DNA of 55,661 nucleotides. It comes from Anaerovoracaceae bacterium (lineage in GTDB: Bacteria; Bacillota; Clostridia; Peptostreptococcales; Anaerovoracaceae). Location: assembly GCA_047637815.1 (NCBI GenBank), contig JBLJBD010000058.1:1-55661 (forward strand). Reading direction: 5' to 3'. Shown here piece by piece: positions 41,328-45,496 of the stretch. The translations under genes were made by a program, and so were the position numbers. Below the pieces are notes generated by a model, which was not told the DNA's origin, ran no database searches, and worked only from the letters and a program-made list of their open reading frames with translations. The first letter of the stretch is position 1, and every line of letters starts with the position of its first letter.

Positions 41328-41360
41328 AAACCGCATCCCTCGGGGCTGCGGTTTTTGTTT
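41328..41360. terminator. bidirectional terminator between gpmI and the sigma-54 activator gene
   Basis: Stem AAACCGCATCCC / GGGGCTGCGGTTT with one mismatch, followed by TTTTTGTTT on plus and TTTGTTATT on minus. Confidence 0.65.
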
Positions 41361-42768
41361 ATTTCTTCTTGATTCCAATGTATTTTTTCACCTTCCGGTA
41401 TGCAGTAGGCTGGCTGATGCCCAGCTCCCGAGCCACTCCAGTAGTGGTTCCGTGCTTCTCATAAGCCCTTATGACCTGCTCTTTTTCCAGGTTTCGGACC
41501 GAATCAGACAAGGCTGGTTCAGAAGACTCCGGTTCTTCCCGAAAAAACTCAGGTTCCACCTCTCCCGTGGTTTTCAGAAGGTATTCCGGCAAGGCTCCTT
41601 CGGCAATCTCCATCCCGTTGCTGGTAATGATGATCCTTTCGATGATATTTTCCAATTCCCGGACATTACCCGGCCATCGATAATTGAGCAGGTGCTTGTA
41701 TACCTGGGGAGACAGCCTTTTATTTTCCTGGTATCGGTCGTTGAACTGTTCCATGAACCGGGCAATCAAATGAATGAGATCCTCCTGCCGGTTTCTTAAG
41801 GGAGGGATTTCCAGGTTTATGACATTGATTCGGTAAAAAAGATCCTCCCGGAAAGCTCCTCTTTCCACGGCCTGCCTCAAGTTCCTGTTGGATGCCGAAA
41901 TCAGTCTGAAATCAGAATGAATCAGTTTCGTACCTCCTACCCTCATAAAGCTCTTATCCTGCAGCACCTTCAGCAGTTTGACCTGTAGATTCAGAGGCAT
42001 TTCCGATATTTCATCGAGAAATAAAGTCCCCTTATCAGCAACTTCTATCAAACCAGCCTTGCCGGTTTTTCCGGCACCTGTAAAGGCACCGGCCTCATAA
42101 CCAAAAAGTTCTGATTCCATCAGATTTTCCGGGATTGCTCCGCAGTTGATTTCCACAAAAGCCTCCTGGCATCGGCTGCCGGTTTGATGGAGGTATTTGG
42201 CCAGCATGCTTTTCCCTACTCCCGACTCCCCGGCAATCAGCACGTTGGTATCATAGGAAGCAACTTTATCCGCCAGATTCATCAAGAACTTCATGGAAGG
42301 GGATTCGGCAACAATATCTCCTTTTCTGCGGACTTTAGTCCGCAGTTCCTGAAGCTCTGCAGAATATTGCTGGATTTTTCTCTCCATTTGGTGATATTGT
42401 TCCTGCATGGCCAGATAATCCGTAACATCTCTGGAAAAGCTGATAACCTTTAATATTTTCCCATCCCCGTCCAAAATAGGCACTGCGGACACCACGATGT
42501 CCCGACCCAGGCTGTTCTTCTGGCGCATAGTGGTCTTTTCCCCGGTATTGAGGACAATTGCCGTGATAGACGGTTTGAATATTCCCCGCTCTTCCATTTC
42601 AAAAACGGTTTTCCCAATGGTATCCTCCCGTTTGACTCCGTACATGGTCTCGAAGCTTTTGCTCATTTTCAGAATGATCCCATTGGCATCCGCAATCAGG
42701 ATATCGTCATGAATCGCTTCCAGGATCAGTTCCAGCTCATCCGGTTCGTCCGTCCACCCTTTTAACAT
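41359..42768 (-). CDS. sigma-54-dependent transcriptional activator: PAS sensor, AAA+ domain, C-terminal HTH (RocR-like architecture)
   Basis: PAS region ([22 protein letters not shown]...). The AAA+ domain has [23 protein letters not shown] (GAFTGA loop) and [11 protein letters not shown]-terminal HTH is [19 protein letters not shown]. The ATG at 42768 is preceded by GAGGGG. Confidence 0.9.
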
Positions 42769-42805
42769 ATCTTTATCCCCTCTTCCCACTGATTATCTTC
42801 ATCTG

Positions 42806-42834
42806 ATTCTATAACAAATTCCTGATATTATCAA
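42806..42834 (-). promoter_or_regulatory. candidate sigma-A promoter for the activator gene (TTGATA-17 nt-TAGAAT)
   Basis: Minus strand reads TTGATA (42834..42829) and TAGAAT (42811..42806), downstream of the terminator at 42849-42880. Confidence 0.45.
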
Positions 42835-42848
42835 CTGAAAGACCGGTC

Positions 42849-42880
42849 AGAAAAGACCCGGTGCATTTTGCACCGGGCCC
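42849..42880 (-). terminator. intrinsic terminator after the ureohydrolase gene
   Basis: Stem CCCGGTGCA / TGCACCGGG (42877-42869 / 42865-42857), followed on the minus strand by TCTTTTCT. Confidence 0.7.
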
Positions 42881-42895
42881 TGATTGCTGATGGTT

Positions 42896-43849
42896 TTATC
42901 GTTTTCCGTTCTTCCGCTGAAGGGCAAGGGCGGAGATGAACTCATGCATGACATTGGCAGCCATATAGGAGGTTACCCCTGCCGGATCGATTCCGGGCAG
43001 AACTTCCACAAAATCGGCAGCCACGAAATTCAGGTCCTTCATTTCCCGGATCAGCTGCATGGTTTCATAACCGGTGAATCCACCCACTTCAATGGTTCCG
43101 GTACCCGGTGCATAGGCTGGATCAACAAAGTCAATATCAAAGGTAAAGAAGACCTTGGCGTCCTTTGCCCGCTCACGAATTCTCCTGCCTACTTCCTTCA
43201 TGCCGATTTCATGCATTTCATTGGCAGTGACCACTTCAAATCCAAGGTCAATGGATCCTTGAACATCCTCCGGTCCATACTGAGAACCCCGGATGCCGAT
43301 CTGAATGGAATGGGCCGTGTCGATCAGGCCTTCTTCACAAGCTCTTCGGAAGGGAGTCCCATGGGTATATTTCATCCCCCAGTAGTTATCCCAGGTATCC
43401 AAATGGGAATCAAAATGGACAAGGGCAACCGGACCATATTTTTTAGCCACAGCCCGAAGCTCTGCCAGGGTGATGGAGTGATCTCCCCCCATGGAAAGAG
43501 GTATTACGCCGGCATCCAGAATGGGTTTCAGCCCCTCTTCGATCTGCTTGTAGGTTTCGTGGATATACCCCGGTGTAATGGGAAGATCCCCATAGTCGAC
43601 GCCAGACAGGTGGTCGAAAATGTTCACGTCTAGATTCATGCTGTAATTCCGCTGAAGGGTGGAGGTTTCCCGGATCTGAGAGGGACCGAAGCGGGCTCCT
43701 GTCTTATAGGACGCGCCGGTATCAAAGGGAATACCCACTATGGCAAAATCCACATCCGTCATATCCTGCACATTGGGCAGTCTCATAAAGGTACGGATTC
43801 CGGTAAATCTTGGAGCGACAGAGGCGCTGGGAGGTGCATACTTTGGCAT
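42896..43849 (-). CDS. agmatinase / guanidino-acid hydrolase family ureohydrolase (substrate unknown)
   Basis: 317 aa with [44 protein letters not shown] and DFVEV. All binuclear-metal ligand motifs of the arginase fold are present. Confidence 0.85.
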   Translation of the reverse strand: [317 protein letters not shown]

Positions 43850-43909
43850 TGTTCTTTCCTTTCTTACTTGTTTAAGTGTAGCGTGCAGGGCGGGGACCCG
43901 GTAAAGTCC

Positions 43910-45430
43910 TTACCCTTTAATCAATTTATCAGCATCCTCTTTAAACCATCGGAATAAACCGATGTTCATCCCAATAATGATAAAGAGGTATGGCACGGAG
44001 AGAAAGATGCACAAGGTTTTTAATGCGCTGAATGGTGCATCGGCAAACATGATGCTTAAGGGTACAGCCGCCAGGACCAGACACCAGAACAAACGCAGAA
44101 AGGGACTGGTATTCCCCTGAGCATCCAGTTTTTTACTAGATACTGCCGACAGAGAGAAGGCTGCTGAATCCAGTGATGTAGCCAGGAATCCTATTGCCAG
44201 CAGACTGAATACGATAGGAACGATGATCCCTCCGGGAAGCAGATCCAGAAGTCCAAAGACACCAATCTGTCCGGTCTCAGCCTCTGTAAACTTGTAAAGT
44301 CCGGTCAGCTCTGCATTCAGGGCAAATCCACCGTTGATTCCGAACAAAATCCAGGTACCAAGGCTGATTCCGATCATGCAGGTCAGTACCAATTCACGAA
44401 TGGTTCTTCCTTTGGAAATCTTAGTGATGAACACACCCATCAGTGCTGCATAGTTCAGAGCCAGCGTAAAGAGGAAGATGGTGTTATATTCCGGGAAACC
44501 ACTGTTTCCGATGGGGTCTGTCCACAGACTCATTTTGATATAGTTGGTGAACATCAATCCCAGGCTGTTGGTGGTCTGCTTAATGATGAAACCACTGGGA
44601 CCAACAATAAAGATAAAGGCAATAAAGGCGATGGCCACATAAATAGTCATATCGCTGATTCTTCTCATTCCCTTCTCCAGCCCCACGAAAGAACTGAGGG
44701 AGAAGATGACGGCAATGGCAACCACGATGGTTACATTCAGGCCGAAGGAAGGCTCAATACCGAAAATTCGTCCCAGACCGGCTGAAATCAGAGGAACACC
44801 CAGCCCCAGGGATACGCCCAAACCACCAACGATGGCGAAAATGGTCAGCACATCAATAACCTTCCCAACAGCTTTGCGGTATTTAAAACCACCCATCATG
44901 GCTTCACATACTGCGCTGACTCGAAGAACCGGGACTTTTTTCACATAAAAGGCATACGCCATAGCAACAGAAGTCATGACAAAGATGACCTGAACGCTGA
45001 ATCCCCAGTGGAAGAAGGCATAGGTGGTTGATAATTCGGCTGCTTCCTGGGAAAAGGGCTCCAGACCGAAGGCAGGATCTACCAGATAATAGGACCACTC
45101 AACAAAGGAGTAAAATACAGCAGTTGATGCCAGGGCAGCGCAGATCATCATGGCGATATAGCTGAACAGGGAGTAATCCGGCTTTCCTTCTCCAAGTTTA
45201 ATTTTGCCATATCGACTAAAAGCAAAATAAGCGCAGATACCTAGTCCGATAAAAACGAACCAAAGGATGGGAACGCCCATCACCGCTGTGGTGAAATCAA
45301 ATAGGGTGTTGACTGCATTCAGCGTCCCTTCCGGCTTGATGGCCATAAAAGCGACGAAGATAAAAACCGCAGCTACGCTGACCAGGGTTACCGGCAAATC
45401 GATGCCAGTGTCTCGTTTCAGTTCTTTCAT
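43910..45430 (-). CDS. BCCT-family (betaine/carnitine/choline transporter fold) secondary transporter, atypical
   Basis: 506 aa, 12 TM-like. It has the BCCT-typical FFHWG and ITKISKGRTIRE motifs, but the Trp box upstream of GRTIRE reads YNTIFLFTLALNYA. Confidence 0.8.
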   Translation of the reverse strand: MKELKRDTGIDLPVTLVSVAAVFIFVAFMAIKPEGTLNAVNTLFDFTTAVMGVPILWFVFIGLGICAYFAFSRYGKIKLGEGKPDYSLFSYIAMMICAALASTAVFYSFVEWSYYLVDPAFGLEPFSQEAAELSTTYAFFHWGFSVQVIFVMTSVAMAYAFYVKKVPVLRVSAVCEAMMGGFKYRKAVGKVIDVLTIFAIVGGLGVSLGLGVPLISAGLGRIFGIEPSFGLNVTIVVAIAVIFSLSSFVGLEKGMRRISDMTIYVAIAFIAFIFIVGPSGFIIKQTTNSLGLMFTNYIKMSLWTDPIGNSGFPEYNTIFLFTLALNYAALMGVFITKISKGRTIRELVLTCMIGISLGTWILFGINGGFALNAELTGLYKFTEAETGQIGVFGLLDLLPGGIIVPIVFSLLAIGFLATSLDSAAFSLSAVSSKKLDAQGNTSPFLRLFWCLVLAAVPLSIMFADAPFSALKTLCIFLSVPYLFIIIGMNIGLFRWFKEDADKLIKG

Positions 45431-45480
45431 CTCAAATCCTCCTGATTAATATAAAAAGAATTAGTTCCATATATTAATAC

Positions 45481-45496
45481 TGCAATTTGTATGCCA
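45481..45496 (-). promoter_or_regulatory. sigma-54 (-24/-12) promoter upstream of the BCCT-ureohydrolase operon
   Basis: Minus strand reads TGGCAT-ACAAA-TTGCA, matching TGGCAC-N5-TTGCW at all key positions (GG and GC 10 nt apart). It lies about 50 nt upstream of the ATG at 45430, which has AGGAGGA as its SD. Confidence 0.8.

Follow-up and report, generated by a model that had tools for sequence, protein, structure and literature searches.

The systems closest to the one described here are the rocABC and rocDEF operons of Bacillus subtilis, controlled by RocR and SigL, in which a one-component activator with PAS, AAA+ and helix-turn-helix (HTH) domains works with sigma-54 from an upstream activating sequence, and in which, for rocDEF, a permease (RocE) is paired with an arginase (RocF) for the use of a guanidino nutrient. 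Sigma-54 regulons reconstructed for clostridia (Nie et al. 2019; AguQ, PrdR, OrdR, SarR) follow the same logic, with a PAS-type activator for each small catabolic operon and its transporter, the AguQ regulon being that of an agmatine deiminase. Further, a 2025 survey found enzymes of COG0010 to be typical and frequent sigma-54 targets in Bacillota. Here, we describe a locus of comparable design in a 55,661-nucleotide stretch of DNA from an anaerobic Anaerovoracaceae bacterium of gut and sludge (GenBank assembly GCA_047637815.1, contig JBLJBD010000058.1; the whole stretch is called the window below), where a sigma-54-type promoter precedes an operon encoding a BCCT-family transporter and an arginase-fold ureohydrolase (HYD-A), next to the gene for a PAS/AAA+/HTH enhancer-binding protein (EBP). 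The likeness to rocDEF lies in the pairing of a transporter with a ureohydrolase; however, the operon enzyme is not an arginase, the transporter is a BCCT protein rather than an amino-acid permease, the enhancer carries the motif TATTCA-N4-TGAATA, and the activator resembles RocR in domain architecture only. An earlier note on this DNA had called the activator RocR-like, which holds at the level of architecture and no further, its best NCBIfam match being PrdR at a score far below the cut-off. On balance, we think it somewhat the likelier reading that the locus is a self-contained, inducible unit that takes up and de-amidinates a zwitterionic omega-guanidino carboxylic acid, with 4-guanidinobutyrate as the leading candidate.

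The layout was read directly from the minus strand between positions 45800 and 41200, together with the listing of open reading frames (ORFs), and runs from upstream to downstream as follows:

45578..45605, minus strand: three direct TGAATA half-sites with a 10-bp period (GTGAATAAAATTGAATAAAATTGAATAG), candidate distal activator-binding sites
45542..45573, minus strand: predicted proximal upstream activator sequence, with the palindrome core ATTCATAAATGAAT at 45551-45564
45481..45496, minus strand: sigma-54-type -24/-12 promoter, TGGCAT-N5-TTGCA (TGGCATACAAATTGCA)
43910..45430, minus strand: gene for a BCCT-family secondary transporter (506 amino acids), operon gene 1, the presumed substrate importer
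42896..43849, minus strand: gene for the arginase-fold ureohydrolase HYD-A (317 amino acids), operon gene 2
42848..42881, minus strand: intrinsic terminator-like hairpin with a 13-bp GC-rich stem and a U-rich tail (UCUUUUCU), closing the two-gene operon
42806..42834, minus strand: sigma-70-like promoter candidate for the activator gene, TTGATA-17-TAGAAT, a match to the consensus at 10 of 12 positions
41359..42768, minus strand: gene for the PAS/AAA+ (GAFTGA)/HTH enhancer-binding protein (469 amino acids), the presumed operon activator

This arrangement bears out the earlier note, which had described a two-gene operon behind a -24/-12 promoter, a clean terminator and a separately promoted activator gene, and none of the note's interpretation was contradicted by the analysis. 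Specifically, the promoter ends 50 nt before the transporter ATG at 45430, which is preceded by AGGAGGA; the two operon genes are separated by 60 nt; and the hairpin behind the hydrolase gene folds at -27.9 kcal/mol (z = -5.8). The activator ORF is likewise in place, with its PAS, AAA+ and HTH domains, while the promoter of its own becomes a candidate, known from its consensus match and lying between the operon terminator and the activator start codon.

The promoter TGGCATACAAATTGCA is the sole match to TGGCAY-N5-TTGCW in the 55.6-kb window, with none elsewhere, including at the rocF arginase gene considered below; 0.11 matches were expected, and 11 of 100 shuffled sequences held at least one. 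Similarly, an exact ATTCA-N4-TGAAT occurs once in the window, at 45551-45564, where 0.19 were expected, and the full palindrome, TATTCA-N4-TGAATA, begins 68 nt 5' of the -24 element. Both elements recur elsewhere. At 17 genome loci, the first gene of the hydrolase operon, whatever it is, has upstream of it a -24/-12 element in which GG and GC are invariant, and such elements also precede the operons at two loci (from Ihubacter and Zhenpiania) that carry a second type of ureohydrolase, called type B here. In the aligned upstream regions, the palindrome (consensus T-ATTCA-N4-TGAAT-A) stands 65-98 nt upstream of the -24 element at almost every related locus, usually joined by a second and a third copy near -135 and -155 at a spacing of about 20 bp; the TGAATA half-sites of the window stand where other loci have one or two of these extra full palindromes. 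Across the 42 loci fetched, exact palindrome matches fall nearly all upstream of hydrolase operons, and they include three loci (L009, L011, L022) where the strict promoter pattern had failed. Further EBP genes and -24/-12 sites are also present in related loci. The control by sigma-54 and an EBP that the earlier note proposed is thus matched by a -24/-12 element and a palindromic enhancer kept across about 20 genomes, which makes a strong comparative case for a sigma-54/EBP regulon with a predicted enhancer. The palindromic enhancer TATTCA-N4-TGAATA is first defined in this analysis, and the distal half-sites would be additional binding sites for the activator.

The proximal palindrome is itself embedded in a hairpin with a 15-bp stem followed by TTTTT (-16 to -20 kcal/mol, z = -3.8), located directly after the stop codon of an upstream gene for an 835-residue protein. 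The palindrome is extended to stems of 11-15 bp with T-rich tails at five other loci as well (L003, L004, L006, L008, L036), the letters of the flanking stem varying among them. The hairpin may double as a terminator of the upstream gene or as an insulator. That upstream region (45624-49687) encodes a GH26 glycoside hydrolase and the 835-residue protein, an FAD_oxidored match whose N-terminus is Germane-like; the two genes accompany the operon in its closest relatives (L001, L028-L030) only.

Conservation of the genes follows that of the regulatory elements. Hydrolase relatives of 98% to 71% identity come from metagenome-assembled genomes (MAGs) labelled Anaerovoracaceae, Eubacteriales Family XIII, Anaerovorax and Lentihominibacter, and Clostridium aminobutyricum carries an orthologue of 78% identity, a search for whose gene neighbourhood turned up no record. 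More distant relatives are found in Clostridiaceae bacterium 35-E11 (a complete genome) and other Bacillota (57-59%), and in Bacillus piscicola, Bryobacterales and Actinobacteria (43-51%). The samples behind the module-bearing genomes include sewage and gut, with termite-gut MAGs among them. In 27 loci compared by tblastn and ORF clustering, hydrolase and activator orthologues are neighbours at about 20 loci in Anaerovoracaceae and other Clostridia, the activators sharing about 50% identity. The earlier note had suggested checking whether the trio of genes is conserved as a neighbourhood: the hydrolase and activator are, while the transporter is not obligatory, since BCCT orthologues (65-96% identity) adjoin the hydrolase at nine other genome loci and NCS1, MFS_2 or APC proteins replace it elsewhere. 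The pairing exceeds chance: about 20 independent genomes have the same hydrolase and activator behind the same promoter and enhancer elements.

The operons that lack the BCCT gene fall into several forms. One has an NCS1 permease with one or two hydrolases of the 'cyclase' family, which resemble kynurenine formamidase and isatin hydrolase; another has an MFS_2 permease with a cyclase; and a third (L012, L014, L015, L016) has an NCS1 permease, an iron alcohol dehydrogenase and two CN_hydrolases, one AguB-like and one Nit6803-like, both far below the curated cut-offs. Indeed, none of the accessory partners (cyclase, NCS1, MFS or CN_hydrolase) comes near its NCBIfam cut-off. The Bacillus piscicola locus combines the activator and hydrolase with a divergent BCCT protein and an Amidohydro_3 enzyme, the Bryobacterales homologue adjoins an APC permease, and the Mycobacteriales homologue adjoins an NCS1 permease. 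No other neighbour family recurs: among 118 neighbour proteins from 21 loci, none was counted more than 3 times, so the unit is self-contained: a regulator, a transporter, a ureohydrolase and, optionally, an amidohydrolase.

At the two type-B loci, from the cultured human-gut Anaerovoracaceae Ihubacter massiliensis (L036:8370-12471) and Zhenpiania hominis (L038:8330-12473), an activator of the same type (49-50% identity), a -24/-12 promoter and the palindromes seen elsewhere all stand ahead of a BCCT orthologue (66-68%). Their ureohydrolase, of 306 amino acids, shares only 33-35% identity with HYD-A but 43-45% with SpeB, and the Ihubacter copy that was scanned passes the SpeB-type model PRK02190 (308.6 bits, cut-off 302). 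Either two ureohydrolase lineages share one imported compound, or the BCCT clade carries several guanidino compounds. In Ihubacter, a second copy, 90% identical, lies upstream, and CN_hydrolase, MFS_2 and Amidohydro_3 genes lie downstream.

The activator has the Pfam domains PAS, Sigma54_activat (1.4e-67), AAA_lid_14 and HTH_50, with GAFTGA and Walker A (GESGVGKS) visible in its translation. Across all operon variants, the PAS domain is 44-59% identical and the AAA+ domain 52-55%; the former is therefore as conserved as the latter, which fits a common effector for the variants. A Mycobacteriales homologue (L025:3628-7626) and a Lachnospiraceae orthologue (L017:6507-8942) of the hydrolase adjoin genes for PucR-family regulators instead of a sigma-54 activator, so that the regulator in charge of the enzyme apparently differs from one lineage to another.

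As the earlier note had it, the hydrolase carries the arginase-fold motifs GGDHS, DSHLD and DIDFVDP and a terminus of the type seen in agmatinase/guanidinobutyrase-like enzymes. It matches Pfam Arginase (4.5e-89, 299 bits), and its metal ligands and catalytic His and Glu align with H126, D149, H151, D153, D230, D232, H163 and E274 of SpeB (in the motifs GGDHS, DSHLD and DIDFVD, the His of THGT and the Glu of VEV), while the 14-residue terminal motif is common to GbuA, GpuA and PAH. The earlier distinction between this enzyme and a separate arginase of the window likewise stands: the gene at 11696-12604 reaches 315 bits against the NCBIfam rocF arginase equivalog (cut-off 227.6), and the two proteins share 27% identity. 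Among solved structures, E-values rank the P. aeruginosa guanidinobutyrase GbuA (2.7e-76) and guanidinopropionase GpuA (1.2e-73) ahead of the proclavaminate amidinohydrolase PAH (7e-68) and the E. coli agmatinase SpeB (1.5e-57). By E-value, then, the sequence is closest to the guanidino-acid hydrolases, whereas pairwise identity is nearly flat (GbuA 43%, GpuA 41%, PAH 42%, SpeB 41%), and it is on this account that we treat HYD-A as a lineage of its own.

Automated pipelines name the protein 'agmatinase'. It does pass the agmatinase equivalog TIGR01230 (213 bits, cut-off 174.3), and yet bona fide GbuA and GpuA pass the same model, which is therefore non-discriminating; we rejected this match as evidence for agmatine. 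Further, HYD-A does not reach the cut-off of PRK02190 (297.6 against 302 bits), and the insertion that bears Trp68 in SpeB is absent from all HYD-A orthologues, although an equivalent of Tyr155 is present; in SpeB, Trp68 of the neighbouring subunit and Tyr155 have been proposed to form a cation-pi pocket for the amino group of agmatine. The enzyme is accordingly not placed with SpeB-type agmatinases, a placement that the earlier note had left to be checked. In place of the Trp68 segment, an Arg within TLQRNYSM aligns with R72 of GbuA and the corresponding Arg of GpuA and is invariant in all HYD-A orthologues; this Arg (R72 in GbuA, R105 in human GDAH) reaches from the neighbouring subunit to the acid group of the substrate. 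At the specificity position of loop A (M161 in GbuA, Y157 in GpuA), HYD-A has a Tyr, within a motif, TWDNYW, that is invariant in HYD-A and that reads VNDHMF in GbuA and TNDRYF in GpuA; TWDNY[WF] is also found in actinobacterial homologues. Two loop stretches, of 15 and 24 residues, are essentially invariant in orthologues from every operon variant. The substrate is therefore probably the same everywhere, with the variable partners feeding the enzyme.

The transporter is a full-length BCCT protein (Pfam BCCT, residues 14-499 against profile positions 1-485 of 485, E 7.9e-118), and its nearest solved relative is DddT, an importer of dimethylsulfoniopropionate (DMSP; 1.9e-100, 340 bits), followed by the carnitine/gamma-butyrobetaine antiporter CaiT (213 bits) and the betaine transporter BetP (134 bits). 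When the binding residues of DddT (PMC13270143) were mapped onto the alignment, the carboxylate-binding Ser204, the Ala99 position and the aromatic-box residues Trp140 and Tyr324 were found to be kept, while Trp320 is replaced by Leu, Trp321 by Ala and Trp313 by Asn. The tryptophan signature of transmembrane helix 8 (TM8) is absent, NTIFLFTLALNY standing for WTVFYWAWWIVY of DddT, a change common to all hydrolase-linked BCCT proteins. The PROSITE signature W-T-x-x-[FY]-W-x-W-W in this helix forms the aromatic box for the onium head group. The predicted pocket would fit a carboxylate-bearing substrate with a different cationic head group. Loss of the TM8 tryptophans, considered as proof of a non-quaternary substrate, is weakened by paralogues beside MttB methyltransferases or CoA-transferase clusters that lack them too.

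Those paralogues, 50-60% identical, belong to other catabolic clusters (L040:5142-14141, L041:373-10929, L042:2-6037). One such cluster combines MttB-type and corrinoid methyltransferases with a sigma-54 activator of its own; the others contain a 2-oxoacid:ferredoxin oxidoreductase and a class III CoA-transferase, with an aminotransferase in L042 only. It is a matter of speculation that these oxidoreductase and CoA-transferase clusters perform an oxidation of the arginine-to-guanidinobutyrate type.

From the observed gene content, promoter, enhancer and conservation, we infer an inducer, a direction of transport and a substrate, and the following sequence of events is proposed. The activator would be made from its own sigma-70-type promoter and would bind TATTCA-N4-TGAATA, and probably the upstream half-sites too, about 70 bp upstream of the -24/-12 promoter. 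On sensing the substrate or a close derivative through its PAS domain, it would spend ATP to open the complex formed by the sigma-54 holoenzyme, and the two-gene transcript would yield the BCCT importer and a binuclear-metal ureohydrolase. The hydrolase would then split the imported guanidino compound into urea and an amine product, which would enter fermentation pathways encoded elsewhere. An omega-guanidino acid is favoured as the substrate because of the affinity of the hydrolase to GbuA and GpuA, the Arg that caps the pocket, the missing Trp68 and the kept carboxylate site of the transporter, and because the transporter's relatives carry C3/C4 onium acids (DMSP for DddT, gamma-butyrobetaine and carnitine for CaiT). 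Within this class, 4-guanidinobutyrate, which would give gamma-aminobutyrate (GABA) and urea, is the favoured single candidate, and 3-guanidinopropionate and taurocyamine are close alternatives. The preference for 4-guanidinobutyrate rests on the orthologues in Clostridium aminobutyricum and Anaerovorax, lineages of GABA fermenters for which GABA would be a ready energy substrate.

Several observations weigh against this assignment. Similarity by itself assigns no substrate, given that the hydrolase is equidistant (41-43%) from GbuA, GpuA, PAH and SpeB; the cap Arg is a weak discriminator, since human GDAH retains activity on guanidino acids in a variant that carries Gly in place of R105; and a Tyr at the GbuA M161/GpuA Y157 position is seen in both guanidinobutyrate- and guanidinopropionate-specific enzymes. 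On the side of the transporter, the loss of the Trp-Trp pair in TM8 extends to the MttB-adjacent paralogues and is not specific to hydrolase-linked proteins, and the same BCCT clade is paired with a SpeB-like enzyme in Ihubacter and Zhenpiania, which would fit agmatine equally. The accessory cyclase, CN_hydrolase and Amidohydro_3 enzymes of the variants are left unexplained by a simple guanidinobutyrate route. Further, no GABA-pathway genes are linked to the unit among the 118 neighbour proteins from 21 loci, and a motif search found no RpoN-box protein in the window or in 655 kb of related loci, a result that is uninformative for the whole genome. A Pfam scan for product-catabolism genes in the rest of the window returned only housekeeping genes, plus rocF, LarB/LarC and folate enzymes.

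One alternative is that the BCCT protein imports agmatine and that the hydrolase is an agmatinase, producing urea and putrescine that is then fermented. The type-B loci keep agmatine a live rival, in that the same transporter clade, activator, enhancer and promoter control an enzyme that is SpeB-like by PRK02190; an AguB-like CN_hydrolase occurs in some operon variants; and the hydrolase is present in two MAGs (L003, L006) assigned to Anaerovorax, which ferments putrescine. However, the TIGR01230 match is shared with GbuA and GpuA, the enzyme of the window misses PRK02190 and has a GbuA/GpuA-type cap Arg where the Trp68 segment would be, and its transporter retains the Ser which in DddT forms a hydrogen bond with the carboxylate of the substrate, a group that agmatine lacks. 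We therefore regard agmatine as an unlikely substrate of this operon.

A rather unlikely alternative, too, is that the enzyme acts on some other guanidino or amidino compound, possibly conjugated (N-acylated or an amide), in which case operons of the simple BCCT type would salvage the free compound. This would account for the recurrence of three unrelated amidohydrolase families (cyclase, CN_hydrolase and Amidohydro_3) beside the hydrolase under the same activator, all of these accessory partners falling far below any curated NCBIfam cut-off. At L012, a second sigma-54 promoter and palindrome precede the CN_hydrolase genes (L012:12010-14103), which places these genes in the same regulon; at L016, a second sigma-54 promoter is likewise found at the CN_hydrolase genes, with no palindrome found upstream of it. 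Yet the operon of the window has no accessory hydrolase, so that its ureohydrolase must cleave the BCCT substrate directly, and no linked gene points to a candidate compound.

Creatine or guanidinoacetate would be a third possibility, and we consider it quite improbable. Here, the BCCT protein would import either compound and the hydrolase would release sarcosine or glycine for Stickland reductases; jointly with this, and with the same low probability, creatinine would be imported through the operons with NCS1 or MFS and a cyclase, which would begin by opening its lactam ring. The idea is attractive because these variants, with their NCS1 (nucleobase/hydantoin type) or MFS_2 permeases and one or two cyclases whose solved relatives include lactam-opening isatin hydrolases, resemble a creatinine branch, and because creatinine fermentation in Tissierella creatinophila runs through creatine and sarcosine while no creatinase gene was found in its genome (PMC5364220). 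The hydrolase loops, identical across variants, would imply one common intermediate, and sewage and gut are among the samples. Against this, no Tissierella protein occurs among the best 120 hydrolase matches (at least 60% identity) or the best 120 BCCT matches; the neighbourhoods of 21 loci hold no linked genes for creatininase or for a reductase of sarcosine or glycine; the creatine importer known from Pseudomonas belongs to the MFS and not to the BCCT family; and human GDAH, a relative of GbuA, does not hydrolyse creatine or guanidinoacetate. The module is also present in termite-gut MAGs, and insects use arginine phosphate rather than creatine. As a long shot, then, the TWDNYW subfamily could be the missing anaerobic creatine/guanidinoacetate amidinohydrolase, with the cyclase variants bringing a new, non-homologous creatininase. 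If this were true, it would fill the creatinase gap of Tissierella creatinophila (PMC5364220) and provide the first BCCT protein for a guanidinium head group.

Finally, a non-catabolic explanation, in which an osmoprotectant importer lies by accident beside a biosynthetic agmatinase, could appeal to the classical import of compatible solutes by BCCT proteins and to the 'agmatinase' label given by pipelines, but it is very remote, given that both genes share one promoter and one terminator across a 60-nt gap, that pairing, promoter and enhancer are conserved across genomes, that the transporter family is swapped while hydrolase and activator stay, and that no arginine decarboxylase is linked in the neighbourhoods of 21 loci.

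Elsewhere in the window, the neighbours of rocF are not roc genes but a DAGK-type lipid kinase gene on one side and a Mur-ligase-like gene on the other. At 17835-22603, LarC-like (nickel insertion) and LarB-like (AIR carboxylase family) genes lie beside FolD and formate-tetrahydrofolate ligase, which hints at an enzyme with a nickel-pincer cofactor somewhere in the genome.

The favoured omega-guanidino acid unit bears on compounds (guanidinobutyrate, guanidinopropionate and taurocyamine, and also creatine and agmatine) that are abundant in guts, sewage and decaying biomass and whose anaerobic fate is poorly mapped. Our results define a conserved regulon in amino-acid-fermenting Clostridia and a ureohydrolase subfamily that pipelines mislabel as 'agmatinase', and the BCCT clade would extend its family beyond methylated onium solutes. 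Cultured strains with close versions of the unit (Clostridium aminobutyricum, Clostridiaceae bacterium 35-E11, Ihubacter massiliensis and Zhenpiania hominis) allow direct tests of its substrate, its inducer and the urea that it would put into gut nitrogen cycling. Literature searches found no paper on a BCCT transporter together with a guanidinobutyrase, and no relevant paper on anaerobic guanidinobutyrate metabolism or on an arginase-fold creatinase. Table 1 of Nie et al. 2019, where Anaerovoracaceae are not among the listed taxa, has no BCCT or arginase-fold hydrolase in its named regulons (31 functionally assigned of 39 groups). The earlier note's remark that it was aware of no characterized pairing of a BCCT transporter with a ureohydrolase under sigma-54 control agrees with both.

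Compared with known enzymes, HYD-A shares with GbuA and GpuA of P. aeruginosa (PDB 3NIO, 3NIP) the N-terminal motif PRF.GI.T.MRLP, all metal ligands and the cap Arg, and it differs from them in overall sequence (41-43% identical) and in loop A, where its Tyr is common to GpuA only and GbuA has Met. The Pseudomonas gbuA and gpuA genes are reportedly under LysR-type regulators, not sigma-54. A precedent for an enzyme annotated as an agmatinase and acting on guanidino acids is human GDAH (formerly AGMAT), which hydrolyses taurocyamine, guanidinobutyrate and guanidinopropionate but not agmatine; it is, however, a eukaryotic mitochondrial protein that is 60% identical to GbuA, and the enzyme of the window is much more distant. 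The transporter has its fold and full-length homology in common with DddT and CaiT and keeps the Ser204, Trp140 and Tyr324 positions of DddT, whereas WTVFYWAWW in TM8 of DddT has become NTIFLFTLA throughout the hydrolase-linked clade. The gain would be a corrected annotation and possibly a new substrate specificity, rather than a new principle. Thus, relative to these systems, what is new here is a conserved regulon with its enhancer motif, together with a ureohydrolase subfamily that stands apart and a BCCT clade that is atypical, joined under a regulatory logic that is already familiar in clostridia.

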